From the IMG/VR virus record IMGVR_UViG_3300050498_000393: 64,000 nt of DNA; one strand, written 5' to 3'. The notes below the pieces were generated by a model, which was not told where the DNA came from, made no database searches, and was given only the letters and a program-made list of their open reading frames with translations. Origin of the DNA: a virus. A program made the translations under genes and the position numbers. Numbering within the stretch: position 1 is the stretch's first letter; the number at the start of each line of letters is the position of its first letter. Shown in pieces: positions 1,001 through 48,643 of the stretch.

Positions 1001-2719
1001 TTACACGCCGCAGGCGGTGAGGTCCGCGGCACCGGTGGTGCCATCCGGGCAGATCGGCACGGTGTACAGCCGGGACTCGTGACCCATCTTCGCGATCAAC
1101 CAGCACTCCTCCTGCCACTCGGCCGTGTGGTCGTTGGTGGCGTTGAGCACCGAATCACGGATGACACCGAGGTTGAGTCGCAGTCCCCGGCCGAGTACGA
1201 ACGTACCCGGCGCGTAGATCATGAACTGGACGGTGAGCGGCCAGACCACGATCGGCGTCGACTGACCCGGGAACCCGGAGGCCCGCACCTGCCAGTCATT
1301 AACCCACTGAACGCGAACGTTCTCGACGTCGAACATGTCCATGAGCGCGGCGTCGGCGACCGTAAGATACCGGAAGTCACCGCCTCGCTTCCGCAGGTCA
1401 GACCGCATCGCGGCGCGCACCCAACGGGGGAGGATAACCTCGAGGATCGCGTCTTCGCACATCGCGTACTTCTCACGGTAGTCGATCGCGGCGAGTGAGA
1501 TCGCACCGAGCACCGGCGCGACGAGGCCGGATCCCGCGGCACCCATGCCGGTGATCGCCGTACCGCTGGCCGTGAGCAACTTCGCGATGTACCGACCGTT
1601 CATCTTGTGCGCGTGTGCCGCGAACAGCAACTTGGTGTGATTCGCGATCAACTCGGGGAACGCATCCTCCGTCAGGTTACCGACGGTGAGACAGATGCCG
1701 TCACACTCGAGACGTTCCTCGAGGAAGGACGGACACGGTACCCGTGCGCAGGTCTTGGTGCCGGCGCCGGTGCCGGTGACGGCCGCGACATCCTGCAGTT
1801 CGGTCCACGACCACATCGCCGCGTTACCGACCAGGTCACCGAACGAGGCCGACACTGGGAAGCGAATGCCACCCCGGTTGATGCCGATCGTCGGAAGGTC
1901 GATCATGCCGTCTTCACAGACGATGTTGTAGAAGTCATACGAGATCTCACTCGGCGCGCACCAGCCACCCGCGGCGACCAGCGCCTCCGGGTCCGTGGCC
2001 GCGGTGAGCACGTCATTGATCTGCTCAGGTGTCGCATCCGGGCCGAGGGTGTACCGGAACTGACGCTCGAGCGCCGCGATCGGGTAGCGCGTCGCGCGCT
2101 CCCAGTCCTCATCGGCACCCCGCACCGCCGCGATCGGCAACGCGCGGGCGCGCGCCGTCATCGCGGCGACCAGCGAGTCCATGCCGTCCAGCCTACCGCC
2201 CGTGGTGAAACCCGGGATGTCGGCGGAGGCCACGAGCACCGGCTCGGTGCGCGGCGCCTTGATCTTCGGCGCGTGCGTCTGCGCGTCCGCGAGTGACAAA
2301 TTCAGCTTGCGAGTCGCACGCCGCGCCGGCTGGGTCGTCGCGCCGCCGGCGACCACCGCGACCGCCGGCGCCGGAGTACCCTCGCCGGCGCCCTCATTGT
2401 CACCCTCGCCGCCCTCGGCGTCTCCGTCACCCTCGCCGTCCTCGGGCTCCTCGGGCTGAACGTGCACCCGGGCCATGAGGGCCTCGCGACCGGCGGCGAT
2501 GTCCGCGCGTTCCTGGATACGGCGTGCGTTCTCGCCGCGAACCGTGTCGACCATGTCGGCCAGCTCGGTTGCGCGCGCCAGTCCGTCCGCGTTGATGTTC
2601 GGATCGCCGGTGACCTCGTCAAACTCGGCGGTGGCGTCCGTCTCGAACGTCGCGAGTTCCTCGTCACTCAGCGCGGTGTAGTCCTCGGGAGGCTGGACCG
2701 GCCCCTTGTTCTTTGCCAC
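1001..2719 (-). CDS. major capsid protein with N-terminal coiled-coil/acidic delta-like region
   Basis: ORF track gives 1001..2776. I prefer the in-frame GTG at 2719 (AGGTGG upstream), which lies downstream of hairpin 2761-2792. A charged helical N-terminus and acidic EPEDGEGDGDAEGGEGD linker precede the GGWCAPSE... capsid-like body. Follows the protease gene. Confidence 0.75.
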   Translation of the reverse strand: MAKNKGPVQPPEDYTALSDEELATFETDATAEFDEVTGDPNINADGLARATELADMVDTVRGENARRIQERADIAAGREALMARVHVQPEEPEDGEGDGDAEGGEGDNEGAGEGTPAPAVAVVAGGATTQPARRATRKLNLSLADAQTHAPKIKAPRTEPVLVASADIPGFTTGGRLDGMDSLVAAMTARARALPIAAVRGADEDWERATRYPIAALERQFRYTLGPDATPEQINDVLTAATDPEALVAAGGWCAPSEISYDFYNIVCEDGMIDLPTIGINRGGIRFPVSASFGDLVGNAAMWSWTELQDVAAVTGTGAGTKTCARVPCPSFLEERLECDGICLTVGNLTEDAFPELIANHTKLLFAAHAHKMNGRYIAKLLTASGTAITGMGAAGSGLVAPVLGAISLAAIDYREKYAMCEDAILEVILPRWVRAAMRSDLRKRGGDFRYLTVADAALMDMFDVENVRVQWVNDWQVRASGFPGQSTPIVVWPLTVQFMIYAPGTFVLGRGLRLNLGVIRDSVLNATNDHTAEWQEECWLIAKMGHESRLYTVPICPDGTTGAADLTACGV

Positions 2720-2760
2720 GGCGTGCCACCTATCGCATCTGCTTCGTAGTGACAAGGATC

Positions 2761-2792
2761 GGCCCGGTACCAGCATACGGAGGTACCGGGCC
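2761..2792 (-). promoter_or_regulatory. perfect 11-bp stem-loop upstream of the capsid gene
   Basis: GGCCCGGTACC-N10-GGTACCGGGCC, between the small ORF stop (2820) and the capsid GTG (2719). Could be an attenuator or RNA-processing site. Confidence 0.5.
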
Positions 2793-2819: not shown

Positions 2820-2981
2820 TTAGCCGCGCGAGTTGGCGATGGCCGCCCGGACGCTGGACAACTCGGCCGCGCGACGCTCTCGCATGGTCTGCGTAACCGG
2901 TGCGATCGTCGACGTGTCTACCGGCTCCGTGAGCTGCGCCGAGGTCACCGCCTCCTTCGTCTTACCGCAACCGCAAGCCAT
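2820..2981 (-). CDS. small head-module protein (53 aa, MACGCGK...)
   Basis: Not in the ORF track (<60 aa). ATG at 2981 with a GGAGGAG Shine-Dalgarno (SD). Fills the gap between the protease stop (2985) and the capsid gene. Confidence 0.5.
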   Translation of the reverse strand: MACGCGKTKEAVTSAQLTEPVDTSTIAPVTQTMRERRAAELSSVRAAIANSRG

Positions 2982-2984
2982 TGT

Positions 2985-5486
2985 TCACTCCTCCAGTGCG
3001 TTTCGGCGACGCCGACGCGTCTCCTCATCCATCTCATCTGAGAGTAGTCTCTCGAGTGTCCGAAGTTCACGCGCCTCATCCTCATCGAGACCCTGATCCT
3101 CGGCCTGCGCCTGAAGCTGATGCAGTCGTTTCCGATTCCCCGAACGCGTGGGACCTTCGACCGGGAAGTCGACGTAGTCCACGTCGCCGCCATCTCCGAT
3201 GTTCGGGACGCTTGAGATGCGGCCGCGACCGTGACCACCGTCACCCACGCTGTCATCTACCCACTTGCCGGTGGCGGGGTTTCGCTTCTGGTTTTTACGG
3301 AAGCGAAAGCTGGCATCATCTCCCACGTCCAGCGTCGCGGTCGAGTGCACCCGTGACTTCAACGCCGCCACGCGGTCGGCCGGTGTGCGACCGAGCCGTC
3401 GCTGTAGGCTGGCGACGACGACGTCGAACGCGTTACGCTCGACGCGCGACCGCTGCAGCTCGAAGTCGACGTCCGCGTCGGCGTGAACGACGCGCACCGG
3501 CACGGACGCCGCGACGAGCTCACCGTTGTCCACCTGAACGGTCGGGGCGCTCCGAGCCAGCGGGAAACCCGGCACGGGTACGAGCAGTGCGGCCACGAGC
3601 TCGCGGCGTCCCGGCTGATCGCGGATTGGCTGCCAGTCACCGGAGAGCCGGCACGTCATCATCTTCGTGATCTGCTCGGCGGTGACGCCGGCCACCAACG
3701 CGCCGGCCACCCACGTGCCACGCTCCGACTCGCCGACGTTGACGCGCGCCACGATCGAGCACGTGTTGTGGTAGTGGTCGGGCGCCCAGTTCAGGTCGGC
3801 GCGTCGCGGGTCGTGCGGGTTGGCGTGGCCGCACTCCATGGTGATCGGTCCGGTGACCACGCGTCCTCCGCCGGCGACGATGGTCTCGCCTCCGAGGAAC
3901 CGCCGGTAGTCGACGTTCCGCGGCGCGTACACCCTGCGGTCGGCGAACGACCGGTGGGCGACGTTGGCCGGCGCGAGCCAGCCGTACACGCGACCCTGGT
4001 CGGTGACGGTGAGCGCGCCGTGTTGCTGGACATCCAGCGGTTCGGCGAACCACTCGGCCGGCGGCACGTCCGAGATCGTGATGACGTGAGCCGCGGCGGT
4101 CAGCGGCTCGGCGGGGGGTGTCGGTGCCATGCCGGCGGCCTCCAGGTGTCGCTGTAGGTGGGCGCGCGCCCGCTCGACGCGCTCGGCGGGTAGCCGCATT
4201 AGATCCAGCGCACGCAGCGCCGCGGTAACGCCGGTGACGTTGGCCGGACCGGCGACGCCGTTCTCGTCCACCTCGTGGTGCAGCAGCGCGCAGTCGTCGC
4301 GCGACGTCATGCCGCTGGTGTGCCAGTTAACGGTCGCGAACGCGCGCAGCGCGCTGGTCAACTTGAGGTCACGCGGCAACCGCGACGCGTGAAGCGGTGC
4401 GTTCCACGGTCCGTCAGACAACTCGATGAAGTGCTGCTCGCTGAGTGCGTAGGCGGGCGAACGCGTCGACTCGGGCGGGCTACCCACCCCGCTGGCCGGT
4501 GGACTCTCGCTGCGTAGGTAGATCCGCGACTCGGTGAACGCCGGGTACTCGACGAGTGTCGCGCCGCGCAGTCGTCCCTTGTGGTAGATGGTCTTCTCGG
4601 GCTTGCCGAAGACCAAGGACACGACGTCACCCTCGAGTCCTTCGGTCTGCGGCTGCTCCGGGTAGATCTCCTCAACGAACGCGTCCTTGGTCGAGTCGAC
4701 CATACCCGAGACGCCGGTGAGTCGCGGCGTCGGCTTCTCGGACATGCGTCGGAACGCCTCGTGCGCGTGATCGTCGGGCGGACCGCCGAGGTCGAGCGTA
4801 CCGCGTCCGTTGACGAGCATGACCGGTTCGGGGTGCCCCGGCAACATCACGGGTCCCTCACGCCACACCTCGTGGATGGTGCCCACGCGTGTCGTCTTGT
4901 CGTTGGTGCCGCCGTGACTGTACTCGTACTGCCAGTCGAGCGGCATGTTACCGCTGGCCGGGTCATCCCAGTCGAGAGAGTTGTGCGCGAACTCGCGGCC
5001 GTCACCCGACTCGATGCCCTCGACGATCAGCGTGCCTTCCCAGGCGCCGGTCTCGTCGACGGTGAAGCCGAGCGTGTCCTCGGTCTGCGTCGTAAACGTC
5101 TCGCCGTCGAGCTCACTGGGCACGGTTCCTCCTCGGGGCCACTCGCCGGTCGCGGCCTTGTGATACTCGGCGCAGAGTCCGCCCGGATCCGTTATGGAAG
5201 GATGCTTACTCAGGTGCCGGATGCAGCGACCCATCGCGCCGTCGGTGCCCCACCGGATCTTGACGGCACCCTCGCCACGCGTCCAGTACTTAAGCAGACC
5301 ACGACCGCCGGGTGCGACCGCGAGCGAGAGCTCGTACACCTCGATCTCGGTGGTGTTCGCGTTCGCGTAGAGGGCGCGTACCTGCGCCTCGGCGGACGAC
5401 TCGCTGTCGTGACACGCGACGGTGGACGAGTCGGCGGCCTTCACGACGCACCACTTATCGCCGCGCTTCTCGACGTCCCACGGCAC
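2985..5486 (-). CDS. capsid maturation protease / scaffold-like fusion (833 aa)
   Basis: Lies between the MuF/2H genes and the capsid gene. Segments YWTRGEGAVKIRWGTDGAMGRCIRHLSKH..GLCAEYH and ITMECGHANPHD..WAPDHYHNTCSIVARV are typical of actinophage prohead proteases. Has a charged helical C-terminal tail. GGAGGAGG SD. Confidence 0.65.
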   Translation of the reverse strand: MPWDVEKRGDKWCVVKAADSSTVACHDSESSAEAQVRALYANANTTEIEVYELSLAVAPGGRGLLKYWTRGEGAVKIRWGTDGAMGRCIRHLSKHPSITDPGGLCAEYHKAATGEWPRGGTVPSELDGETFTTQTEDTLGFTVDETGAWEGTLIVEGIESGDGREFAHNSLDWDDPASGNMPLDWQYEYSHGGTNDKTTRVGTIHEVWREGPVMLPGHPEPVMLVNGRGTLDLGGPPDDHAHEAFRRMSEKPTPRLTGVSGMVDSTKDAFVEEIYPEQPQTEGLEGDVVSLVFGKPEKTIYHKGRLRGATLVEYPAFTESRIYLRSESPPASGVGSPPESTRSPAYALSEQHFIELSDGPWNAPLHASRLPRDLKLTSALRAFATVNWHTSGMTSRDDCALLHHEVDENGVAGPANVTGVTAALRALDLMRLPAERVERARAHLQRHLEAAGMAPTPPAEPLTAAAHVITISDVPPAEWFAEPLDVQQHGALTVTDQGRVYGWLAPANVAHRSFADRRVYAPRNVDYRRFLGGETIVAGGGRVVTGPITMECGHANPHDPRRADLNWAPDHYHNTCSIVARVNVGESERGTWVAGALVAGVTAEQITKMMTCRLSGDWQPIRDQPGRRELVAALLVPVPGFPLARSAPTVQVDNGELVAASVPVRVVHADADVDFELQRSRVERNAFDVVVASLQRRLGRTPADRVAALKSRVHSTATLDVGDDASFRFRKNQKRNPATGKWVDDSVGDGGHGRGRISSVPNIGDGGDVDYVDFPVEGPTRSGNRKRLHQLQAQAEDQGLDEDEARELRTLERLLSDEMDEETRRRRRNALEE

Positions 5487-5523
5487 GGCGCACCTCCTCC
5501 ACCCGCTGGTCGCTAGGGTAGCA

Positions 5524-6252
5524 CTAGGAGGAGATCTCGCCGAGTGGGATGTCGACCACCTCGTCAGAGAACGCGACGCGGATCCGGTCGAAGATGATCG
5601 GACCGGTGAGCTCGGCCAGCGACTCCACGTCCACGTCGCCGCCCTCCGCGTAGAGCAGGGTGACGTGCGGGATCCACGGCGAGCGCTGCTCGGGCATCAC
5701 CCAACCGTCGTCGCGTACCGCACCGAGTGTCTCACACACGCTCCACTGGAGCTCCTCGAGCGCGCCGGTGTCATCGCCGACTATTAGCACGACGCACGGC
5801 TCGTCACCCTGCGGGTTGAACTCGGCGACGGCGAACGCGCTGCCGGTGACCGGAACGTCGACCGCGTGGTGCAGCAGTTGCTTGATAATCTCACCGCGTG
5901 CGGCGGGTGGCACCGTGCTGGCTGCACCGAGGAACGCGAGCGTTAGGTGCAGCTGTTCTTCATCCTCACCGCCGTCGACGGCCAGTCGCTCGGCGTCGAC
6001 GACTCGTGGCACGAGCGCGATCATGGCGCCGGTGTGTGACTCGCCGGCCGCGGTGAGGATACCAAGCACCTCCGCATCGGTGAGCTCGCGTTCCGCGACG
6101 ATCGTAGACGACGCGATCTCCTGCCACGGCGGCACGCCGGTGGTCAGAAAGCGACGCGCCTGACCGTCGCTCAACGGCACGGCCTCGACCAGCGTCGTCA
6201 ACCTGAAGCCGTGGTCACTCTCGACGGGTCCCACGTTCGACGGCTGGGTCAC
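5524..6252 (-). CDS. 2H phosphoesterase superfamily protein (LigT/CPDase/Acb1-like)
   Basis: Two H-x-T-x motifs: H102-L-T-L (EQLHLTLAFLG) and H196-V-T-L (IPHVTLLY). The start abuts the stop of the MuF gene. Confidence 0.75.
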   Translation of the reverse strand: MTQPSNVGPVESDHGFRLTTLVEAVPLSDGQARRFLTTGVPPWQEIASSTIVAERELTDAEVLGILTAAGESHTGAMIALVPRVVDAERLAVDGGEDEEQLHLTLAFLGAASTVPPAARGEIIKQLLHHAVDVPVTGSAFAVAEFNPQGDEPCVVLIVGDDTGALEELQWSVCETLGAVRDDGWVMPEQRSPWIPHVTLLYAEGGDVDVESLAELTGPIIFDRIRVAFSDEVVDIPLGEISS

Positions 6253-9200
6253 GGCTCCGGCACCACCCTCAAGCGCACCACGATCTTACTACCGACCTTC
6301 TTCACCGAGATGATCCGGAAGTGGAGGCCGGCGGCCAGCGTCATCTCGTTCTCGGACTTGAAGTGAGAGATCGGTCGAACGTACGCCATGGGCGTTCCCG
6401 GCGGCGCCTCGATCTCGAGTCGCACGGTCTTCGAGAACGCCTCCTTACCCCCGACGCTGGTCGAGCTGAAGCCGTCCGCCCGGTACGTCTGGCCAACCAT
6501 CGCCAGTAGTTGATCATAGCTCTTCGCGCCGCCGACGCCGTCCAGGCCGGTGCCGCGGTGTAACAGCATCGGTCGCGTGGACGGCCGCATGCCGGCCTGT
6601 ATGTGAATCATCGCCGTCTCGTTCGAGGACGAGAGCGAGTCGGAGTCACCCCACAGGTACGAGTTGATCGAGTAGTAGATGCCGCCGGTGTACGCGGTGA
6701 GGCCGGCCTGCTCCTCACTGGTCCAGTCCCCGTACTTCTTCTTGGACGCCTTGGACGCGGCGAGCGCATCGATGGTCGACACGACGTCGTACGTGTACTT
6801 ACCGGTCGTGTCGAAGTCCTCGATCTCGGCCGGAACCTTGAGCTTAGGCTTCTCAGGCTTCGGGATCGGCAGGCCCGCGGCCGCCGCGGCGCCCTTCGGT
6901 GTCTTGAGCCACGCGAGTACGTTGTTCTGGTAGGCCTTCGCGTCGTTGCCGGTGGCCTTGACCTTCGCCGCGCGGATCTCGTCGAGTACCTGTAGCACCT
7001 GCAGCAACGATAGGTTGTAGTCGCTACCAACTTGCTTAGCCGCGGTGTAGATCGCGGCGGGTGAACCCTTCGCGGATGAGGTGCTCGGCAGCTTCTTGAA
7101 CTCGGCGTAGATCTCCTGCTTGGTGGCGGCCGGAAGGTGACCGATGCCCGATGTGGTGATGTCGGGTGGCTCGGCGCCGGGTGTGAGCGGCGCGGTGGAC
7201 GTGGGTGACTGACCCAGCGCCTCCTTCAACTGCGCAATCGACAGTCCTGACTGCACGGCGCCCTTGTTGGTCTTAAGCCACTTGTGGATCTTGTCGGTGT
7301 GGGGCGTCGGTGACTTCTTGGTCTTGGTACCCTCGTCGAGCGCGTGCAAGATCTGCAATGTGCTATACGCGGGGTAAAGCTGCTTGATCTTCTTAACCGC
7401 GGCCCAGATGTCCTCGGGCTTCGAGTACCAGTGAGCGCCTTGCTCCTTAGCGAGCGTCTGCATGAACTGCTTCGACGCCGCTGAGATACCCGAAGTGTCG
7501 CCGACGACAGACGGTGTGACAACCGGCACGACAGACACCGGCGAGGTAACGCTACCGGGCGCCGGGTAGTCAGCTTGCTGGCCCGGCGTGCTCGGTACCT
7601 CCCACTGCCCGAACCACGGCTGTTTGCTCTGCTTGATGACTTCCTGCTTACCGACGACACTGACCTTCGACCATGTGCCGTCCCAGTTCTTTTTCTCGAA
7701 CGTGTACGTCGTCGAGTTCTTAACCAGTCGCCACTGCCCATCTACCGACGTCGCAATGAGCGTACCGGGTGAAAACTTCCCACCGAGCAAACCCTGCCAG
7801 TTCTGGATCGTAAGCTCATTCTCAACGTAACCACCCGACACGTCGGGCTCACCGGTCCACGGCACCCACTTCGACCCGTAGCCAAACGTCAGTTGCTCGA
7901 TCTGCGTGGAGGCGATGTCGCCGTCGTCACTGAGACTGACGTCGTCGATCGACAGCCACGTCCCGTGAAGCTGCTTCTTCTCGACCGTGATCGTGTTGCT
8001 GGCGTAGCTGTTGATAATGAGTCGGTACGTACCGTCGTGAGTCACCGCGATCGGTATCGTGGGATCGTACTCCTGCTCGTAGATGCCCGTGAGAACGCTG
8101 GACCAGTCGACGCCCTCGGCGATCACGTCCTCGGAGATCGTGGATGTCGTAGGCGTCGGCAGCTCCGTGAGCGAGAACGCCGGTGACGCCACGGCGTGCC
8201 ACTCCGGTGCGTAGTTGAGCAGCTCACTATGCAGCTTATCGCCGGTGTCATACGTGTAAAGATCAATTGAATCGAGTTGTGACACGTACCACCGGGTGGT
8301 GTATGAGACCAAAAAGACACCGGTGTTGGTGCTCTGCGTGAGCTGATACTTGCCACCCGACGGCGTGATCGCCTCCGCGACCGCCGTGCCACTCGGGTAG
8401 TCACCCGCGTAGTTGCCTTCGATGATTTGATCCCAGTTGGGTGTGGTACCTACGTCAACGTCCCCGGGCTGCCCTACCAGATCGGGCGCGTTCGTGGCCT
8501 GGGGAGGAAGTGACGGTTCACCACCAGGGATGAACCAGCCGGTCTGACTCTTAAGCTTGGTGTACGCCTCCTTCTTGGAGTACGAGAATGATGTCGTCTT
8601 CGTTGGGCCTACGATGGTGTGCACGTACTTCTTTTGCCCATCATCCCACACGAGTTTCTGGCTGCCATCTGCCGAAACGGCGATAACATCACCGTCCGCG
8701 TATGGCTCCTTCGGCCAGATGACACCCGTGGTGATCTTAAGCGGGTCACCGGGCTTACCCTTCGGCTTCTTCGCACCACCCGAGAGTGTCGGACCTGCCT
8801 TCTCCTTCACGGGTGACTCGACGAGCGACTCGAGCTGCGGCGTGGATACCGGCTTAGACTTCGAAGGCTCCCCGTCATAGAGATCAAAGATCGCCTCGAT
8901 GTTCTTAGCCAGCGCCGGGTGCAGTTGCCCAGACTGCTCGAGCTCCTTGATCTCCGCGTAGGTGAGCCACTTCGCGTCGCCGGTCTCGGTCTGGTCCACA
9001 ACCGGGTCGAACATCTCGGGCGCGTCGGCGGCGATGGACGAGTACACCCACGGCTGCTTACCCTCGATCGGCACGGCCGTCGAGTGCGTGCCGACCTTCT
9101 TCATCGAGCCGACGTAGTCCGCGGGCGCGCCGATCTCCTCGTGGATCTCGCGCGCGGCACCCTGCTCAGGTGTCTCGAATTCATCGATGGCGCCCCCGGC

Positions 9201-12011
9201 CAGCTGCCACTTACCCTTGTTCGAGGAGACCTGGGGACCGCGCTGGACGAGCAGGAATCGTTCGGTGCCGTCCTCGTCGGTGTGTCGGATCATGACGCCC
9301 GCGGCGCCATACCGTCCCCACAGTCCCGGCGCGGCGTAGCCGTCGCCGGACTTCCCACGCTGATCCTTAGGCAGAATCGTGAACGGCATCGCGTCGGCCG
9401 CCGGCTTCTTCTCACCCGGCTCGGGTACGCCGAAGCGCTTCATGAGGTAGGCACGACGCTTCTTCAGCCTATCGGCGAGGTCCTTGCCCAGGCCCGCGTT
9501 GACGACGGCCTGGTCGATCGCCTCGGGCGTGATCGCCGCGACGCGCTTCACCGACTCGCGGATCTCGTCGTCGGTCATGTCCCCGAACAACTGGGCAGCC
9601 TGCGCGTTGATCTTTGGATCACGCAACGTGTCGATCTCGAGGGCATCATCGCCGAACTCGGCGCCCTTCGGCTTACCCTTTGCCCGGAACAGCAGCGTTC
9701 CACCGACGTCGATCCGGTGCGGCTCACCATCATCGCCGGTGACGATGTTGTCGAGCGTGAGACCGGCAACGTCCCAGTTGGCCAGCCAGGCGTCGACCGC
9801 GAAGCCCTCCTGGAGCTTCTTCCGGTACGCCGGGTCCTTGAGCTTCACGGAGAGATCGGGCACCGCGCCCGGCACGAGGTCCGTGTACGTCTGGCCGACA
9901 GTCGTGTCCGGCAGATCGGGCGCGTCGGTGGCGCGGTGCACCTGCGGCGTGTCGACACCGGCGGCGCGGTAGAGCGCCGAGGCAAGCACCTCATTCTTGG
10001 CGTGCTTCTCGGACTTGGCCCGCTTGACGTAGATCCGGTGTCCGGTTGGTCCCTCGTAGACGCCCCCGAGGTTGGAGCCCTTCTGGCCAGAGATCTTCTT
10101 GTAGCCCTTGAGACTGGCGACCAACTTCGAGATCAGCACCTTGACGCCGGCCTGCTTCGCGAACTTACCCTCCGTATCGCGCTTGACCTGTGACTCCTGG
10201 AAGGGCTTCTTCGCGGCGACGAGTGTCGCGTCATCTCCGTCCACGGTGTCCATACTATCATCTTGTGAGACTTTGACACGCTTAACGTGATCGGCGGGGA
10301 TCGGTGGACCAACGTCCACACACGGCGGGATGTCGACGGTGCTCACAGTCTGCCAACTCATCGACCCAGTCAAGGTGGTGACGTACCGCACCTGCGTCTC
10401 ATACACGTCAGCACCAGCCGTCACCAGTTCAACGTCAACACGTCTAATACCCTTGGCATCTACGCCGTGATCCGCGACGATTCGAAACTTCGAGTTACGC
10501 GGTAACAGTACCTCACGCTCCCACGCATACTTCTCGGTGATGCTTGGAAAGTCAGCCCGCCCTATGCGTAGCGTCGGCGTATCCTTGGGTACCAAGATAC
10601 GCATGATCAACGGTGCGCCTGTGAGTGCACCGGTGTGTGCCGCCGATGTAAAGTGTTCGGCCGTTGAGCCATCTACGGTAACGGAGGTAAACCCCGGGTC
10701 ATCCCACGTTAAACCAACGTTGCTCTCATCGTCGTGCCATGACTCCCCGAATATCGCACTCGGGTTGATGATGCCGCGTTCCACGACGACATCACGCTTA
10801 AGCTTCGCCTTCGGCTGCTGAAACGCCAGATCAAGTGTGCGAACGCTGTCGCCGTAGCCGACGACACGACCCTGACCCTGGTCGTCCCTCTCGGTGAACC
10901 ATGAATCGCGATCGGTACCCTCACGTAACCTTCCGTTAAGTTGAAACGCGTCATTTTGATAACTGCCTACCGCGTGACTAAGGCCCGAGACGGTGGTTGG
11001 GCCGATCTGCCCACTCGCGTTAGGTCCAAGATTTCGACCCTTGTCATCAACTACACCGAACTCATCCGTAGACGTAACCACGTCGTAGGCCTTGTCGCCG
11101 GTACGTGCCTTACCTAGGCGCTTAAGAATCTTTGTGATATCACCCACACTTAACGTCTCACGGTGGCCGTGTGCCTTCTGATCGTGTAGCCCAGGCAAAT
11201 GAAATGTCTCGGCTTCGGTGGCCGCGATAACAACCTCCGCAACATCGACAACGTCGTCAATGTCGGTCGAGATGTGAAACAGCTGGGTGCACCGACAGTT
11301 GATCGTCTCACCCGGCGGTCCGGTCACATCGCCCGGGTAGTCGAGGAGCGCGCCGCCGACCTCATACTTTCCGTCCAGCGGCACGCTCTGGCCGTCGGCC
11401 AGCGCGTGGCTCGGCCGGGTCCGGTCGTCCTCGGTGGCCCGCCACTCCTTCTTACCCTCGAGACCGGACACCCGCAGCTGGGCGAGCGAGCCCGCCTCCA
11501 GGGCGGCGTGCGCCTCGGTGCGTGCGATCGTTAGGGCCCGCGCCTCGGACAGCTTGGCGATGTCCTGGACGCGCTTCGCGAGCTGCCCCGAGGTCTCCCC
11601 CAGGCGCAGGCCGTCGGCCAGCGCGAGGCGGATCAGCTCCCAGAGCTCGGTGGCCAGTGCCTTGACCCGGTTCGTCGCCGCCGTCAGGAAGTCGGTGGCG
11701 TCGGGCGCGGTGACCTGACCGCCGAGCGACGCGTTGACGGCGTCGGCCGCGCCGTAGTACAGCGTGGCAACGAACGGGGTGAGCTTACCCTCGACCTCGT
11801 CGTGCCACGCCTGCACGACGAGCGACGCGTCGTCGGGCGAGGTGGACGCCACGAGTCCCGACCAGCCCAGCTGGCCGGCGGTGACCGCCGACTGCGAGAG
11901 CACGTGGTTTGCGACGGCGTACACGGATCGCCGAAGCGACGCGCGAAAGCGTGCCTCGGTCGCGATGATCCTCTCGTCAATCTGGGCGAGTGTGAGCGCG
12001 GCGAGCTCCAC
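6249..12011 (-). CDS. MuF-like minor capsid protein fused to multiple enzymatic domains (1,920 aa)
   Basis: Single uninterrupted ORF directly downstream of the portal gene. N-terminal SPP1 gp7/MuF signature plus the domains listed separately below. Confidence 0.9.
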   Translation of the reverse strand: MELAALTLAQIDERIIATEARFRASLRRSVYAVANHVLSQSAVTAGQLGWSGLVASTSPDDASLVVQAWHDEVEGKLTPFVATLYYGAADAVNASLGGQVTAPDATDFLTAATNRVKALATELWELIRLALADGLRLGETSGQLAKRVQDIAKLSEARALTIARTEAHAALEAGSLAQLRVSGLEGKKEWRATEDDRTRPSHALADGQSVPLDGKYEVGGALLDYPGDVTGPPGETINCRCTQLFHISTDIDDVVDVAEVVIAATEAETFHLPGLHDQKAHGHRETLSVGDITKILKRLGKARTGDKAYDVVTSTDEFGVVDDKGRNLGPNASGQIGPTTVSGLSHAVGSYQNDAFQLNGRLREGTDRDSWFTERDDQGQGRVVGYGDSVRTLDLAFQQPKAKLKRDVVVERGIINPSAIFGESWHDDESNVGLTWDDPGFTSVTVDGSTAEHFTSAAHTGALTGAPLIMRILVPKDTPTLRIGRADFPSITEKYAWEREVLLPRNSKFRIVADHGVDAKGIRRVDVELVTAGADVYETQVRYVTTLTGSMSWQTVSTVDIPPCVDVGPPIPADHVKRVKVSQDDSMDTVDGDDATLVAAKKPFQESQVKRDTEGKFAKQAGVKVLISKLVASLKGYKKISGQKGSNLGGVYEGPTGHRIYVKRAKSEKHAKNEVLASALYRAAGVDTPQVHRATDAPDLPDTTVGQTYTDLVPGAVPDLSVKLKDPAYRKKLQEGFAVDAWLANWDVAGLTLDNIVTGDDGEPHRIDVGGTLLFRAKGKPKGAEFGDDALEIDTLRDPKINAQAAQLFGDMTDDEIRESVKRVAAITPEAIDQAVVNAGLGKDLADRLKKRRAYLMKRFGVPEPGEKKPAADAMPFTILPKDQRGKSGDGYAAPGLWGRYGAAGVMIRHTDEDGTERFLLVQRGPQVSSNKGKWQLAGGAIDEFETPEQGAAREIHEEIGAPADYVGSMKKVGTHSTAVPIEGKQPWVYSSIAADAPEMFDPVVDQTETGDAKWLTYAEIKELEQSGQLHPALAKNIEAIFDLYDGEPSKSKPVSTPQLESLVESPVKEKAGPTLSGGAKKPKGKPGDPLKITTGVIWPKEPYADGDVIAVSADGSQKLVWDDGQKKYVHTIVGPTKTTSFSYSKKEAYTKLKSQTGWFIPGGEPSLPPQATNAPDLVGQPGDVDVGTTPNWDQIIEGNYAGDYPSGTAVAEAITPSGGKYQLTQSTNTGVFLVSYTTRWYVSQLDSIDLYTYDTGDKLHSELLNYAPEWHAVASPAFSLTELPTPTTSTISEDVIAEGVDWSSVLTGIYEQEYDPTIPIAVTHDGTYRLIINSYASNTITVEKKQLHGTWLSIDDVSLSDDGDIASTQIEQLTFGYGSKWVPWTGEPDVSGGYVENELTIQNWQGLLGGKFSPGTLIATSVDGQWRLVKNSTTYTFEKKNWDGTWSKVSVVGKQEVIKQSKQPWFGQWEVPSTPGQQADYPAPGSVTSPVSVVPVVTPSVVGDTSGISAASKQFMQTLAKEQGAHWYSKPEDIWAAVKKIKQLYPAYSTLQILHALDEGTKTKKSPTPHTDKIHKWLKTNKGAVQSGLSIAQLKEALGQSPTSTAPLTPGAEPPDITTSGIGHLPAATKQEIYAEFKKLPSTSSAKGSPAAIYTAAKQVGSDYNLSLLQVLQVLDEIRAAKVKATGNDAKAYQNNVLAWLKTPKGAAAAAGLPIPKPEKPKLKVPAEIEDFDTTGKYTYDVVSTIDALAASKASKKKYGDWTSEEQAGLTAYTGGIYYSINSYLWGDSDSLSSSNETAMIHIQAGMRPSTRPMLLHRGTGLDGVGGAKSYDQLLAMVGQTYRADGFSSTSVGGKEAFSKTVRLEIEAPPGTPMAYVRPISHFKSENEMTLAAGLHFRIISVKKVGSKIVVRLRVVPEP
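6252..6809 (-). other. C-terminal ADP-ribosyltransferase domain (ART2) of the MuF fusion
   Basis: aa ~1735-1920: YTGGIYYSINSYL, R1819 (LLHRG), S1849-S-T-S (GFSSTS), E1887-N-E1889 (SENEMTL). This is the canonical R-STS-ExE triad. Confidence 0.8.
6876..7490 (-). repeat. two ~90-aa helical protein repeats inside the MuF fusion
   Basis: SKQFMQTLAKE..LQILHALDE..IHKWLKTNKGA versus TKQEIYAEFKK..LQVLQVLDE..VLAWLKTPKGA (aa ~1508-1712). Confidence 0.6.
7602..8726 (-). repeat. four beta-rich protein repeats inside the MuF fusion
   Basis: DGSQKLVWDDGQKKY / GGKYQLTQSTNTG / DGTYRLIINSYASNT..EKKQLHGTW / DGQWRLVKNSTTYTFEKKNWDGTW (aa ~1096-1470). This stretch is visibly lower in GC and Lys-rich. Confidence 0.55.
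8877..9329 (-). other. Nudix hydrolase domain of the MuF fusion
   Basis: aa 939-961, GGAIDEFETPEQGAAREIHEEIG, matches the Nudix box GX5EX7REUXEEXGU. Confidence 0.8.
9462..10124 (-). other. protein-kinase-like domain of the MuF fusion (family unresolved)
   Basis: aa ~630-850: Gly-rich loop GSNLGGVY, IYVKR lysine, NEVLASALY Glu, WDVAGLTLDNIV and HRIDVGG. The motif order matches a kinase fold. Confidence 0.45.
10422..10994 (-). other. internal ADP-ribosyltransferase-like domain (ART1) of the MuF fusion
   Basis: aa ~340-530: R412 (VVVERG), F441-T-S-V-T445, E498-R-E500 (WEREVLLP). This is an R-S-E triad pattern. Confidence 0.6.
11277..11714 (-). other. MuF / SPP1 gp7 head-morphogenesis domain
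   Basis: ARTEAHAALEAG..WRATEDDRTRPSHALADGQSV..GETINCRCT (aa ~100-245). Confidence 0.8.
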
Positions 12012-12014
12012 GGC

Positions 12015-13613
12015 TCACCTCGGCGGTGCGACGACGACGGTGATGGGTCGCGCGCCGTTCGGCTCGGAGGGCGCCTGGTCGGGTCGCGTCGGTGGGGTGT
12101 TCCCGCCGCCCGGCGCGGTGGTCGCACCGTCGCCGGGCTCCCCCTCGCCTGGGCCGTTCGGCGCGGGTGCGCCGGGCGGCGGAGCCGGTGGGGTGAACTT
12201 ATCACCGGTGAGCTTCTCGTAGGCCTCGGCGGCCAGCTGCGGGTTGTCCAGCAGCTTCACGAGCGCCATGCGCTTGAACTCGTCGGGGGACGGCTCGGCG
12301 GACTCGTCGACGCCCGACTCCTTGCGCGTTGCGGCGTCGCTTACGATCAGTCGGTCACGCAGTTCGAGGACCTGCTGACTCAGGTCGGGCTTCGAGGTGA
12401 GCTCGCTCGTGTCGTACCAGACGATGATCCGGTCACCGTTCAACGTGATCGGTTCGTGGGCCGCGCGCAGCATCGGGTGTAGGTAACCGAGCGTGAGACC
12501 CTGACACACCGTCTCGATTGGCGGCGCGATGAAGATCTTGATGGATTGCTCGTCGCCGAGCCACGCGTTCCAGTGGTTGGAGTCGCCTGTGCCGAGCAAC
12601 GCCTCGACCGGCATGCGCAGCGTGCGGGCGAGTCGCGTGATCGCCTTGTCTCGGTCGTCGAGCAGCGAGTTGCGCGCCTGCGAGTCGGCCTGGTCGTGGA
12701 ACGTGATGTGCTTGATCTTCTCGATCGCGTCACCCGGGATGCGCCACGGGATCGGCAGCGCGGCCAGCGCGGTGCCCGGTTCGGAGATCGACTTGGCGGC
12801 GATGTCGACGAGTTGCGCGACCAGAGGATCGGCCTCGTCCTGGAACTCGGGCCGGACCGGAACGGTGATTTCCTCGGGGATCGCCAGGATGCCGTTCATG
12901 GCGAGCCGTGAGATCAGCAGCGCGATGATGCGTCGGTCGTACAGGTTGATCTCGCGCAGGATCGCGAGCGCGGCCTTGCCGACGGCCGTGGCCTTCCAAC
13001 CGAAGTGCCGGTCCTTCTCCCAGATACGGCACACCAGCGAGTCGTCGGCGATCGGCCGCCAGACGCCGTCATCCACCTGTATCTGGAACGTGCCGGCGTC
13101 GTCATCATCCCGGTTGCCCAGCAGACCACTAAACGTCTGGCCGAGCCGGGACCTACGCTTCCGCTGGATCGGCTGCACCTCGTCGGCGGACCGGACGACC
13201 CACAGTTGCTCCCCGTCGACGACCTCGCCGGTGAGCCAGCAGTCACCGACCAGCGGGAGGTGCACCCCGAAGTCACTCATCATGGCGGCCTGGCCCGGCA
13301 GGCCACCGCAGAGCTCTTGCATGATGTCCGCGGCGGGTCCGTCCTCGATCGGCTCGGGCTCGTCGCCACCGGGCGTCAGGACGGCGGCCAGCAGCCGCAC
13401 CCGTGACATCGAGTTACTGAGCCACGTGACGCCGGCGTTGTACTCACCGATCGCGTCGTACATCGCCCAGGACTCGTCCTGCCACGACCTGTACCGGATG
13501 AGTAACTGACGGGTCGACTGGACGATCGACGCGGCGGCCACCAGCGCCCGGCGCTCGACCGTTCGCGTGACGCTGGCCGACGCCGTGAGCGCGTCCCTGC
13601 GCCGGTCGGCCAC
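12015..13613 (-). CDS. portal protein
   Basis: 532 aa. Lies immediately upstream of the MuF gene. The N-terminal WQDESWAMYDAIGEYNAGVTWLSNSMSRVRL pattern is typical of actinophage portals. Confidence 0.8.
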   Translation of the reverse strand: MADRRRDALTASASVTRTVERRALVAAASIVQSTRQLLIRYRSWQDESWAMYDAIGEYNAGVTWLSNSMSRVRLLAAVLTPGGDEPEPIEDGPAADIMQELCGGLPGQAAMMSDFGVHLPLVGDCWLTGEVVDGEQLWVVRSADEVQPIQRKRRSRLGQTFSGLLGNRDDDDAGTFQIQVDDGVWRPIADDSLVCRIWEKDRHFGWKATAVGKAALAILREINLYDRRIIALLISRLAMNGILAIPEEITVPVRPEFQDEADPLVAQLVDIAAKSISEPGTALAALPIPWRIPGDAIEKIKHITFHDQADSQARNSLLDDRDKAITRLARTLRMPVEALLGTGDSNHWNAWLGDEQSIKIFIAPPIETVCQGLTLGYLHPMLRAAHEPITLNGDRIIVWYDTSELTSKPDLSQQVLELRDRLIVSDAATRKESGVDESAEPSPDEFKRMALVKLLDNPQLAAEAYEKLTGDKFTPPAPPPGAPAPNGPGEGEPGDGATTAPGGGNTPPTRPDQAPSEPNGARPITVVVAPPR

Positions 13614-43667: not shown

Positions 43668-44172
43668 TCGTTTGGCTACGATGATCGCGCTCCAGCGTTC
43701 GTTGCAGGAGACGCACATGCTTCGCGGCAACACGTTCGCTGATATGACCACACTGGAGCGGGTGCACTACGTCAGGGACATGTACGTCGCCGCTACCCAG
43801 GAGCTCGGTGAGGTGCTCGACGAGACGACGTGGAAGTCGTGGTCCGTCGCGCAACCCGCGATCCACGATGATCACCTCTTCGGCGAGGTGATCGACGTGT
43901 GGCACATCGTTATGAACCTGTTCCTCGTCGCGCGACCGAACGCGACGTCGGATGAGATCGCCGCCGAGATCTACCGTGCGTACCAACGGAAGCGACAGAT
44001 CAACGTCGAGCGGCAGGTCAACGGCTACGCCGGCGACGGTAAGTGTCCACTCTGCACGCGGGCGCTGGACGACGTGGGGTTCGTACCCGACCTCGAGGCG
44101 GATCCGGCCGGTCAAGACATGATGATGTGCCTCGGCTGTCGCGGTACGTTTCCACGGGACGACGTGAGGTGA
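43642..44172 (+). CDS. all-alpha NTP pyrophosphohydrolase (dimeric dUTPase/dCTPase/MazG-like) with C-terminal zinc ribbon
   Basis: ATQELGEVLDETTWKSW...GEVIDVWHIVMNLF acidic helix pattern. CPLC...CLGC. GTG at 43642 with a GAGGAGGGG SD. Confidence 0.55.
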   Translation: MQSEPPVPDRLATMIALQRSLQETHMLRGNTFADMTTLERVHYVRDMYVAATQELGEVLDETTWKSWSVAQPAIHDDHLFGEVIDVWHIVMNLFLVARPNATSDEIAAEIYRAYQRKRQINVERQVNGYAGDGKCPLCTRALDDVGFVPDLEADPAGQDMMMCLGCRGTFPRDDVR

Positions 44173-45371
44173 CCTACCGAGCGCTGGACGTCATGGGCTT
44201 CGCCGGCGGATTCACCCTCGGCGTCGTACAGGCCGGCTTCGAACTGGTCGGTAAGCGGGAGCTTCAGGGCGGATTCGGCGTGGCGAACTGTGAGGTCAAC
44301 CGACACCTACTCGGCTCGCGCTGGCAGACCGAGATCGGCCACGAGAGCTCGTGGACGCCGGTGGACACCGAGTTGGTCTTCGGCAACCCACCCTGCTCCG
44401 GCTTCTCGGTGATGTCGGCGAAGACGTTTCGCGGCGCGGACTCGAAGATCAACCACTGCATGTGGGCATTCGTCGAGTACGCGGCGCGCGTGCGACCCCA
44501 AGTCGCCGCGTTCGAGTCCGTCCAGCAGGCGTACACGAGCGCCGACGGCCGTGTGCTCATGACGTCGCTGCGCAATCGACTAGATGAGTTGACGGGTTGG
44601 CACTGGAACCTGCATCACGTGTTACACAACGCGTACTCGGTGGGTGGCGCCGCGCAACGACGTCGCTACTTCTGGGTGGCGTCGCGCGTGCCGTTCGGCG
44701 TCGAGGAACCCAACCCGCGCACGCGCCTTCCCCTGCTGCGCGACGTGATCGGCGACCTCGCCCAGCTCGGCCAGACGTGGCTACCGCAACCCTACCGAGC
44801 CAGCGCCGATTCCTGGGCCGAGCCGCGTCGCCGTACGGACGGTGCGGTGGACGGTCACGTGTCCCTGGACATCCCCCTGACCCGCCGGATACGGCAACTA
44901 CTGGACGCCGTCGACTGGAAGCCGGGGGAGGCGCTCGGCGACGTGTTATCTCGCTACTGGGACGAGTACGGCCGACTGCCCAACGGCTTTGACGAGGAAA
45001 AGATCGTTAAGAACGAGTTCCACGTGGGTTACACGACTCCGACGCGCTGGAACGGTAACAACCCGGCGCGTGTAATCACCGGTGGCGCGCTGCAGATGGT
45101 CGTGCACCCGTGGCTCGACCGGACGATCACCCACCGCGAGGCCGCGCGGGTGATGGGTTTTCCCGACGACTGGCTGATCGAACCGCTACGCGGCAAGTCA
45201 GGCCTACACCTCACGTGGGGTAAGGGAATCACGGTCGACTGTGGGCGCTGGCTCGGTGGTTGGATCAAGCGTGCCCTAGACGGTCAGCGGGGTAGCGTCG
45301 CCGGTAAGCTGGTCGGTAACCGTGAGTGGACCATCGACGTCACCAACTCGTATCGCAAGTTCATGTGGTAG
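44169..45371 (+). CDS. DNA cytosine-C5 methyltransferase-like enzyme
   Basis: Motif I DVMGFAGGF, motif IV GNPPCSGFS (Ser where Gln is usual), motif VI AAFESVQ, and REAARVMGFPDDW. GTGA overlap start. Confidence 0.75.
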   Translation: MTYRALDVMGFAGGFTLGVVQAGFELVGKRELQGGFGVANCEVNRHLLGSRWQTEIGHESSWTPVDTELVFGNPPCSGFSVMSAKTFRGADSKINHCMWAFVEYAARVRPQVAAFESVQQAYTSADGRVLMTSLRNRLDELTGWHWNLHHVLHNAYSVGGAAQRRRYFWVASRVPFGVEEPNPRTRLPLLRDVIGDLAQLGQTWLPQPYRASADSWAEPRRRTDGAVDGHVSLDIPLTRRIRQLLDAVDWKPGEALGDVLSRYWDEYGRLPNGFDEEKIVKNEFHVGYTTPTRWNGNNPARVITGGALQMVVHPWLDRTITHREAARVMGFPDDWLIEPLRGKSGLHLTWGKGITVDCGRWLGGWIKRALDGQRGSVAGKLVGNREWTIDVTNSYRKFMW

Positions 45372-47507: not shown

Positions 47508-47717
47508 GTGACTACCGTATCTCCCAAGTTTCCCGACGTAGTGGTCAAGTTGACCGGTGTTGATGGCAACGCGTTCAACCTGATCGGTATCGTGACCGGC
47601 GCACTACGGCGTGCCGGCCACCGCGACGCAATCCGTGAGTTTTTGGACGCGGCGTTCGAATGCGATAACTACGATGCGCTGCTCCAGCACATCATGAAGA
47701 CCGTGGAGGTGCGCTGA
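47508..47717 (+). CDS. hypothetical protein (69 aa)
   Basis: GTG ORF following the promoter/leader with a strong SD. Confidence 0.65.
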   Translation: MTTVSPKFPDVVVKLTGVDGNAFNLIGIVTGALRRAGHRDAIREFLDAAFECDNYDALLQHIMKTVEVR

Positions 47718-48643
47718 TGACCAACACGACGCTGACCAACACGCAGTTCTCCGCGCGCGAGGTGCCCTGGATGAAGCTGGGCAAGCTCGTGGACGAGCCG
47801 ACGACCGCCGCCGAGGCGGCCAAGCTAGGCGGCCTTGACTTCAAGGTCGAGAAGCGTGAACTCTGGTTCACCGGCCTGCACGGTATGCAGGTGATCAAGG
47901 AGCGCTGTGCCGTCGTACACCGCGACACCGAGGAATGGCTCGGGATCATGAGCGACGAGTACCCGCTGCTTCAGTACTCCGAGGCCTTCGACTTCATGGA
48001 CACGATCTCCCCCACGTTCGTCGCCGCGGGTGCGCTACACGGCGGTCGGCAGGGCTTCATGGTCGTCCGGGCACCGGGCAAGTGGGAGTTCAAGCTCGCA
48101 CACGGTACCGATCTCCACCACCTCTACCTCGTGTTACGCACGTCGCACGACGGCTCGCGCGCCGTCGAGGTGTCGATCCAACCACTACGCGGGCTGTGCA
48201 TGAACCAACTGACCCTGCGGTCATTCGTCGCCGGGGTACCCCACCGCTGGTCGATACCGCACACCAGCACCATGACTACGAAGTTGGCCGAGGCGAAGAA
48301 GTCCATCCACAAGTTCAACGAGTACGGCGCGGCGCTGACCAAGCTCAGCGACAAGCTGGTAGACCTGAAGGTCGGCCAGCCGCTCGCCCAGCAGGTACTC
48401 ACCCGCGTGATTCCCGATCGTCCACGTGCCCAGGAGGTGCGTGAGGAGATCCTGAAACTGTGGACCGGCGCCCCGACGGTCGGCTACGCCGGTACCGGTT
48501 GGGGTCTGGTCAACGCGATCAGCGAGTACTTCGAGTGGGGTCGCACCGGCGGCACACCGCAATCGCGTTTCGTCGGTGCCCTGCAGGGCCAGACGCACCA
48601 GGCGATCAACCGCGCCGCGGGTCTGCTGTTGTCCCGCGCCTGA
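47717..48643 (+). CDS. DUF932-like protein (308 aa)
   Basis: The N-terminal REVPWMKLG..AAEAAKLGGLDFKVEKREL... and ..GGRQGFMVV.. pattern is typical of the phage/plasmid DUF932 family. Recognition from memory only. Confidence 0.5.
   Translation: MTNTTLTNTQFSAREVPWMKLGKLVDEPTTAAEAAKLGGLDFKVEKRELWFTGLHGMQVIKERCAVVHRDTEEWLGIMSDEYPLLQYSEAFDFMDTISPTFVAAGALHGGRQGFMVVRAPGKWEFKLAHGTDLHHLYLVLRTSHDGSRAVEVSIQPLRGLCMNQLTLRSFVAGVPHRWSIPHTSTMTTKLAEAKKSIHKFNEYGAALTKLSDKLVDLKVGQPLAQQVLTRVIPDRPRAQEVREEILKLWTGAPTVGYAGTGWGLVNAISEYFEWGRTGGTPQSRFVGALQGQTHQAINRAAGLLLSRA

Follow-up and report, generated by a model that had tools for sequence, protein, structure and literature searches.

A 2H phosphoesterase encoded between MuF and a probable prohead protease in a viral head module: a candidate virion-carried enzyme

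The closest described relatives of the gene analyzed here are the phage 2H phosphoesterase domains reported by Iyer et al. in 2017 (PMC5512222) and in a 2022 survey (PMC9503650), which are fused to MuF or portal domains and predicted to be packaged in the head. The passages of the 2017 paper that deal with these polyvalent proteins state that the 2H domain never accompanies RNA ligases, and propose for it either a Usb1-like RNase activity or the degradation of 2'-5' oligoadenylates or cyclic nucleotides; the parts of the 2022 survey on MuF and portal fusions again predict packaging and an anti-signalling function. It has also been shown by Nomburg et al. (2024, PMC11410667) that LigT-like phosphodiesterases (PDEs) of phage T4 (Acb1) and of avian poxviruses degrade isomers of cyclic GMP-AMP (cGAMP). 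In this work we analyzed a 2H gene carried by a 64,000-nucleotide stretch of viral DNA, IMG/VR record IMGVR_UViG_3300050498_000393 (hereafter the window, at its full length), where it lies between the gene of a MuF-bearing protein and that of a protein with a probable prohead protease domain, here called X. The window 2H protein is a further, split member of the already-described MuF-associated family, and we give a probability of about one half to the reading that it is a virion-carried, host-directed, LigT/ThpR-like 2H phosphoesterase, a module of a MuF–2H–X–capsid set, acting most likely on immune nucleotide signals.

The window gene shares with the MuF- and portal-fused 2H domains, as far as these are described in the relevant parts of the two surveys (PMC5512222, PMC9503650), the domain itself, the late head operon, the place beside or fused to MuF, and the logic of packaging and injection; it differs in being a separate gene that is translationally coupled to one encoding a giant MuF-NUDIX-ART protein. 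The same parts of these papers do not describe a tight linkage of 2H to the protease-like X (2H-X, MuF-2H-X) or its lineage-wide commonness. Homologous 2H domains, with 30-45% identity and the same catalytic motifs, are present in Maih gp11, Ali17 gp16, GMA2 Orf10 and Cali gp90, which are likewise placed between portal/MuF and capsid gene; these actinophage relatives are mostly fusions of 900-1200 amino acids (aa), unlike the stand-alone gene of the window. The LigT/ThpR enzymes (Thermus thermophilus TT0787, 1iuh; the cyclic phosphodiesterase [CPDase] of Deinococcus radiodurans, 5h7e; Pyrococcus horikoshii PH0099, 1vdx; Escherichia coli ThpR, 5ldi) have the fold and the two H-x-T-x motifs in common with it, but these are free-standing cellular proteins of some 180 aa, whereas the phage family has its own signature (GAMIALxP, FNP, PWxPH[VI]T and FDR), carries an N-terminal segment of 73 aa and is set in a head module. 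Acb1 (T4 57B family; PDB 7t27 and 9q2g; PF23474) is also phage-encoded, shows the 2H fold and the His pair, and plausibly belongs to the same function class; in contrast, it is a small free protein without a link to MuF or protease. Finally, coronavirus NS2a, the C-terminal domain of rotavirus VP3, the avian poxvirus cGAMP PDE and Usb1 share fold and dyad, and set a precedent for the cleavage of 2'-5' oligoadenylate, cGAMP or RNA 3' ends by this scaffold (PMC11410667), although their likeness to the window protein is distant and structural only (E 1e-4 to 1e-5, 10-18% identity).

In the explanation that we favour, the 2H protein is made together with the head proteins, as its operon position shows; it would then enter the procapsid alongside MuF and the protease, as the fusions suggest, be retained in the mature virion, which mass spectrometry has shown for the relative GMA2 only, and be released into the host with the DNA. 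There, the two His-x-Thr motifs would bring about the metal-independent cleavage or hydrolysis of a ribose-linked phosphodiester, the chemistry expected from the family. The likeliest substrates would be host immune nucleotide signals, i.e. cyclic di- or oligonucleotides or 2'-5'-linked oligoadenylates, and the main alternative RNA 2',3'-cyclic phosphate ends. A more specific version can be put forward only tentatively, namely that the domain is an immune-signal eraser within the head polyprotein, freed in the procapsid by the prohead protease and ejected with the DNA, so blunting signalling by cyclic oligonucleotides or 2'-5' molecules, as used by the cyclic-oligonucleotide-based antiphage signalling system (CBASS), type III CRISPR and comparable systems, from the onset of infection.

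The open reading frame (ORF) and its parts are the following:

5524..6252, minus strand: ORF of the 2H phosphoesterase, 242 aa, GTG start
5539..6033, minus strand: 2H catalytic core, aa 74-238, supported by structure prediction (see below) and Foldseek; its conserved block begins with TGAMIALVP
5938..5949, minus strand: first catalytic motif, H102-L-T-L, conserved among homologues
5656..5667, minus strand: second catalytic motif, H196-V-T-L, conserved among homologues
6034..6252, minus strand: N-terminal segment of 73 aa, linker-like, with one or two short helices, modelled by AlphaFold2 with low confidence
6249..6252, minus strand: GTGA overlap between the 2H start codon and the stop codon of the MuF-ART gene, an arrangement for translational coupling

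The first-pass annotation of this DNA had drawn attention to the two motifs, 94 residues apart in a 242-aa ORF, and this proved correct; they are the sole H-x-[TS]-x matches in the protein. By itself, the motif pair is weak evidence for a 2H identity: at least two H-x-[TS]-x motifs arise in 16% of shuffles of the protein, and the stricter arrangement, two H-phi-[TS]-phi motifs separated by 70-120 aa, in only 0.17%. The profiles and the predicted structure say more. PF13563 (2'-5' RNA ligase superfamily) was matched with 27.5 bits, a small margin over its cut-off of 27 (E 3.7e-6), and all 33 homologues examined match it too (best 1.9e-15); the PHROG 'RNA ligase' family phrog_2659 was matched at 2e-27, and PF02834 (LigT_PEase) reached 17.5 bits, under its cut-off of 23.3. 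When phmmer was run with the single 2H sequence against PDB chains no match was obtained, and it was the family profile alone that reached LigT-type structures. In an AlphaFold2 model built on the 33 homologues, aa 74-238 have a predicted local distance difference test score (pLDDT) above 90 throughout, and the 44 PDB matches returned by Foldseek at E<=1e-3 are all 2H or 2H-like, with probability 1.0 (0.98 for one chain); among them are LigT/ThpR proteins of archaea and bacteria, Usb1, Acb1, a CPDase from plants, and PDEs of rotavirus and poxvirus. The comparison of a predicted structure with Acb1, LigT and CPDase that had been suggested for this protein thus yields a 2H fold, with LigT/ThpR as apparently the nearest type, and its earlier designation as a 2H phosphoesterase, with an intact catalytic dyad, is confirmed at the level of profiles, modelled fold and histidines kept in homologues.

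The coding strand is taken to be the minus strand because the GC content at third codon positions of the ORF (0.84) is like that of the adjoining genes; two plus-strand ORFs that overlap the locus (5422-5787 and 5660-6163) were rejected as shadow ORFs of a GC-rich gene. It had been described that the start of the gene abuts the MuF stop; the two ORFs actually overlap by 4 nt. A frameshift or readthrough joining MuF-ART to 2H was considered and rejected, given that the GTGA overlap is an ordinary coupling arrangement with no sign of recoding. The identical 2H protein (P0001) is present on 6 metagenome contigs, and the same contig (65.5 kb) recurs in several metagenome assemblies.

Conservation was counted over 100 distinct 2H domains, and separately in the alignment of the 33 homologues. 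H102 and T104 are invariant among the 33; in the larger set H102, T104 and H196 are each kept in 99 domains, so that a loss of the His motifs in orthologues, previously named as a possible refutation of the 2H call, is not seen. G75, M77, P82, N146, P192, Y201, G217 and D222 are kept in at least 97% of the 100. Against a 90%-identical relative, the ratio of nonsynonymous to synonymous substitution rates (dN/dS) was 0.13 in the core and 0.22 in the N-terminal segment. Taken together, the conservation and the dN/dS pattern argue for a working enzyme and not a structural relic, and the protein is probably active, presumably as a metal-independent PDE by analogy with the family. The residue at position 198 is T in 63 domains, C in 35 and A in 2; in 35 of the 100 family members, therefore, H-x-C-x replaces H-x-T-x in the second motif (equivalent to T198, window 5659-5661). 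To our knowledge this variant has not been reported among characterized 2H enzymes.

The family to which the gene belongs is very large. A tblastn search with the 2H protein found relatives in 385 GenBank phage records (209 from Mycobacterium, 154 from Gordonia and 17 from Streptomyces phages), and a search with the core only, at the loose E limit of 10, in 495; all these relatives have less than 60% identity to the window protein, and a search of GenBank phages for near-identical DNA gave no match. In IMG/VR, 521 stretches carry 2H relatives and 590 carry X relatives, and when a profile was run against 1.84 billion cluster representatives (50% identity), 968 proteins passed the limit E<=1e-30 and 3,927 the limit E<=1e-10; the best 150 profile matches are 197 to 2,462 aa long, with the 2H domain at variable positions. 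The synteny portal-MuF-2H-X-major capsid protein is kept in about 150 loci. Two sets were analyzed for domain content: 78 distinct loci found through the 2H domain, nearly all with the order portal-MuF-2H-X-capsid protein, and 45 found through X and containing the complete interval from portal to X. Among the 78, the 2H-bearing ORF is MuF-2H-X in 28, 2H-X in 19, MuF-2H in 3, 2H-ART in 2, and shows no other detected domain in 26; MuF-2H(-X) fusions thus account for 31. In the reverse test, starting from X, a 2H domain lies inside the portal-to-X interval in 34 of the 45 modules (76%). Maih gp11, from a Streptomyces phage and labelled 'capsid maturation protease and MuF-like fusion protein', can be read as MuF(99-240)-2H(237-434)-X(470-1094), and Ali17 gp16, from a Gordonia phage and labelled 'RNA ligase', as X C-domain(18-185)-2H(358-576) followed by a 345-aa tail, the gene being placed between the MuF and capsid genes; given that the X C-domain is N-terminal to 2H in Gordonia phages, the two domains travel together in either order.

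The window thus holds this widespread modular unit in a split-gene form, in which MuF–2H–X is encoded by three translationally coupled genes where many relatives have one polyprotein. The position of the gene between MuF and protease genes, recognized previously, is borne out by the MuF-NUDIX-ART gene upstream and the probable prohead-protease domain of X downstream; the accompanying statement that 2H enzymes fall outside the standard set of head-module components does not hold, since the domain is present in three quarters of the related modules and in hundreds of phages, and its association with MuF and portal proteins is on record in the sections cited above (PMC5512222, PMC9503650). As judged from gene content, a 2H domain is close to standard in the head module of a large actinobacterial phage lineage.

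The fusions also bear on where the protein acts. MuF/SPP1 gp7 and prohead proteases are proteins of the procapsid interior, and in 50 of the 78 relatives 2H forms one polypeptide with MuF, with the protease-like protein or with both. The slot N-terminal to X is occupied in other relatives by NUDIX, by ART, or by a peptidoglycan-binding (PG-binding) domain plus DUF6582, and in some by a domain pre-annotated as PF13489, which suggests that it behaves like a cargo slot. In keeping with this cargo logic, ART toxin domains can also be attached to the 2H protein directly (P0003, P0097, L045, L050). In the Gordonia phage GMA2, the gene of Orf10 (883 aa) directly follows that of a portal homologue; its 2H domain covers aa 730-876 (E 8e-27 against the family profile), with HLTL at 756 and HITA at 836. 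Orf10 was detected by mass spectrometry in purified virions with 29.4% coverage (Dyson et al. 2015, PMC4524720, Table S5), and a peptide listed in that table, SEVGDYDAYTPHITAVTGQQAR, corresponds to aa 825-846, within the 2H domain and spanning the second catalytic motif. The MuF and X fusions, the cargo-like slot and the GMA2 proteomics favour the inside of the capsid, followed by the host, as the place of action, and the window 2H protein is probably carried in the virion. A literature search for virion proteomics of ReqiPepy6 and for the 'BCSR5' phosphodiesterase found nothing usable.

Regarding the substrate, immune-signal degradation is ranked first and an action on RNA ends or as an RNase second; this order follows from the proposals of Iyer et al. 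and the results of Nomburg et al., and several results weigh against the reading of a virion-carried enzyme that degrades signals. The family profile searched against PDB gave 1iuh (2e-8), 5h7e (4e-5), 1vdx (2e-4) and E. coli ThpR (1e-3), and Acb1 only at 0.05, so that by profile the nearest solved proteins appear to be RNA 2',3'-cyclic phosphodiesterases of the LigT/ThpR type. By structure the best Foldseek matches are again of this type (1vdx, 1iuh), and by sequence the phage family forms a large group of its own; the Foldseek E values for LigT, Usb1 and Acb1 all fall between 1e-4 and 1e-6 with no separation, and the viral PDEs are not set apart by their structural scores either. Neither sequence nor fold tells whether the enzyme is a PDE that degrades signals, an RNA cyclic phosphodiesterase or a Usb1-like RNase. 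The window protein has no match to the Pfam Acb1 model, PF23474, at E<=10; weak sub-threshold matches occur in 6 of the 33 homologues (best 5.9e-5), and for GMA2 Orf10 the score is 19.6 bits, with the cut-off at 27. In addition, the virion evidence concerns a fused form in a distant relative, GMA2, and not a stand-alone 2H protein. The degradation of cyclic oligonucleotides, proposed for this gene from its letters, stays the leading idea, whereas a specific kinship with Acb1 is not seen.

These results give some room to a packaged effector directed at RNA, either a Usb1-like 3' exoribonuclease or RNase, or a 2',3'-cyclic phosphodiesterase acting on the ends left by metal-independent RNases, i.e. 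host nucleases of the HEPN or MazF type or a MuF-associated PBECR RNase. This is the strongest of the rivals, though we hold it to be a good deal less probable than the degradation of signals. The best profile matches being LigT/ThpR-type enzymes speaks for it, as does the presence of Usb1 among the top structural matches (5v1m, E 1.9e-5), and Iyer et al., in the part of the 2017 paper concerned, favour an RNase, with MuF-2H paralleling MuF-PBECR architectures (PMC5512222). A role in classical RNA repair is unlikely, because RNA ligases are not found beside these 2H versions: no RNA ligase, polynucleotide kinase or Tpt1 was seen among the ten large window ORFs covered by a non-exhaustive scan, and the same account of 2H domains (PMC5512222) likewise records none next to RNA ligases. 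If, on the other hand, the enzyme were not packaged, it could be an Acb1-type protein of the cytoplasm, made late and working in the producing cell when capsid proteins trigger CBASS-like systems. Such a role would suit the window gene, whose product stands alone and is joined covalently to neither MuF nor X, and it is reminiscent of Acb1, a free enzyme (PMC11410667), and of the stand-alone 2H of cluster C mycobacteriophages (Cali gp90), which is near but not within the MuF/protease unit. We regard it as unlikely, given that 52 of the 78 relatives fuse 2H to MuF, X and/or an ART toxin domain, that the 2H domain of GMA2 is physically in virions, and that the 4-nt overlap of start and stop codons couples 2H expression to MuF.

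The remaining two rivals are improbable. The occurrence of 2H in 76% of the related head modules, in a fixed position between MuF and a protease-like gene, is what would be expected if the domain served assembly only, having no host target and acting within the MuF/protease polyprotein as, e.g., a spacer, a chaperone or a decoy. However, both histidines together with the pocket residues N146, Y201 and D222 are conserved nearly absolutely, which suggests selection for catalysis, 11 of the 45 modules lack 2H, and in others the slot N-terminal to X holds unrelated domains (NUDIX, PG-binding); this makes a purely structural role very doubtful. At least as hard to credit is the partnership with the neighbouring ART and NUDIX modules that had been offered as an alternative in the first-pass annotation, in which 2H would hydrolyse a cyclic phosphate derived from ADP-ribose such as ADP-ribose 1''-2'' cyclic phosphate (Appr>p). 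In the window, the gene of the ART-bearing protein ends in an overlap with the 2H start, 2H-ART and 2H-ART-X fusions exist (P0003, P0097, L045, L050), and all 9 modules with ART/NUDIX also have 2H. This co-occurrence is not significant, with a one-sided p = 0.059 that ignores relatedness, and 25 of the 34 2H-containing modules have neither ART nor NUDIX. Moreover, by Pfam the window ART is of the PF03496 exoenzyme type. ARTs of this type modify proteins and yield no cyclic-phosphate product, whereas Appr>p is made by enzymes of the Tpt1/KptA type. The juxtaposition of 2H with ART and NUDIX seems better explained as the shared cargo of one packaged set. In several relatives (L003 2001-3263, L045, L050 and P0097), an exoenzyme-type ART either follows 2H as the C-terminal domain of the fusion (2H-ART) or separates it from X (2H-ART-X); in L003, two adjacent genes each have an ART domain.

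If a virion-delivered PDE against host nucleotide signals is indeed what these genes encode, anti-CBASS and anti-cyclic-oligoadenylate biology would extend to actinobacterial phages, and such enzymes could be preloaded in the capsid; it would be the first demonstrated virion-delivered enzyme that degrades a nucleotide signal, with a prohead protease that also matures anti-defence cargo. For annotation, MuF–2H–protease is best treated as a single modular unit, fused or split, to which the window contributes just one more split example. Hundreds of the Gordonia, Mycobacterium and Streptomyces phages sequenced so far have a member of the family, and its genes regularly receive a wrong name, 'RNA ligase' or 'head maturation protease'; the former comes from the name of a Pfam family and not from a tested function. 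The labels in use also include 'portal protein', 'capsid maturation protease and MuF-like fusion protein' and 'hypothetical protein', and the same gene can have discordant labels in its GenBank and RefSeq copies, e.g. in Ali17, TP1604 and YDN12.

The N-terminal extension of the window 2H protein had been estimated at about 90 aa; an extension is present, but it measures only about 73 aa, since strand beta-1 (G75-P82, GAMIALVP) lies upstream of the H102 motif. Its pLDDT is below 50 for aa 1-23, 48-57 and 66-70, and short helices are modelled at aa 29-38 and 43-49. Residues 1-73 align with the linker between MuF and 2H of Maih gp11, and the dN/dS of the segment, given above, indicates purifying selection. 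Close stand-alone relatives have in common a strand-plus-helix motif, described by eye as F-x-L-V ... G-[YFL]-T-E-[DA]-E-A-x-x-F-L-x-G; the fused forms show a comparable L-T-E-D-E-I helix downstream of the N-C-R-C motif of MuF, and in all forms, fused and stand-alone, the segment ends with [TS]-A-A-x-x-x-H-[TS]-G-A-M. The segment may be a docking element or a carrier of protease sites.

The genes from 13613 down to 1001 are all on the minus strand, with no promoter- or terminator-like site between them, in the order portal, MuF-NUDIX-ART, 2H, X, a 53-aa ORF and the major capsid protein:

12015..13613, minus strand: portal protein (phrog_776, 3.8e-103)
6249..12011, minus strand: polyvalent protein of 1920 aa with MuF (aa 127-243), NUDIX (908-1024) and ART (1759-1907), from Pfam and PHROGs
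2985..5486, minus strand: protein X, 833 aa, encoded downstream of 2H as its partner and, in many relatives, part of one protein with it
4527..5042, minus strand: X aa 149-320, probable prohead serine protease domain, with an invariant Ser260 in G-x-S-V-D-x-D and weak profile matches
3507..4064, minus strand: X aa 475-660, a conserved domain, its fold unassigned, that accompanies the 2H domain
2820-2981, minus strand: 53-aa ORF between X and the capsid gene
1001..2776, minus strand: major capsid protein (phrog_777, 1.8e-133)

The X gene is separated from the 2H stop by 37 nt and is preceded by a strong ribosome-binding site (GGAGGAGG). As a whole protein X has no Pfam match; its homologues show three conserved blocks (aa 61-117, 149-320 and 475-660). 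The second of these carries the motif W-x-G-V-L-x-V-E-G-x-E-S-G-D-G-R-x-F … S-H-G-G … G-x-S-V-D-V-D … G-A-T-L-V-x-x-P-A-F, in which Ser260 is invariant; weak Pfam matches were obtained to Peptidase_S77 (0.005) and S78 (0.05), in 2 of 14 members each, and individual members also weakly match the PHROG head maturation proteases phrog_80 (1e-5) and phrog_3244 (3.5e-4). A full-length AlphaFold2 model of X (pLDDT 77) had no significant match in PDB by Foldseek, perhaps because the query has several domains, so the protease call relies on the weak profile matches and the conserved Ser and His; with moderate confidence, aa 149-320 are a probable prohead serine protease. The third block, with no Pfam relative and no relative among PDB sequences, has invariant H511, H554, H571, S615 and D617 and is confidently modelled by AlphaFold2.

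The first block of X, aa 61-117 (window 5136-5306, minus strand), is a Cys/His-rich motif of about 55 aa, phrog_6439, with the sequence L-R-x-Y-W-x-x-G-x-G-A-x-K-I-R-W-G-T-x-G-S-F-x-R-C … G-L-C-A-x-Y-H-x-x-A-T-G-x-W-P. It is mobile, being found at the N-terminus of X, between MuF and 2H, after 2H, and at the C-terminus of GMA2 Orf11; it is present in loci L016, L046, L048, L061, L077, L018-L020 and L168 (orf11). In relatives, ORFs of comparable length occupy the place of the 53-aa ORF: L003 has a gene of 59 aa there, Maih its gp12 (61 aa), and Ali17 its gp17 and gp18. In the MuF-NUDIX-ART giant, aa 260-895 and 1045-1740 are without a family assignment, and these regions recur, sometimes duplicated, beside ART domains in related loci.

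The rest of the window is a typical replication module of lytic actinophages, with a Prim-Pol/D5 primase-helicase, a DNA polymerase A, an SNF2 helicase, a PD-(D/E)XK nuclease and a C5 methylase; tRNAs were not detected. The C5 cytosine DNA methylase (44043-45371, plus strand) and a DUF932 protein (47717-48643, plus strand) belong to this early/replication region. A homologue of GDP-mannose 4,6-dehydratase/NAD-dependent epimerases is encoded at 49142-50149 (plus strand; Pfam E 1e-37); it may act on sugar nucleotides, in the glycosylation of virion proteins or of DNA.

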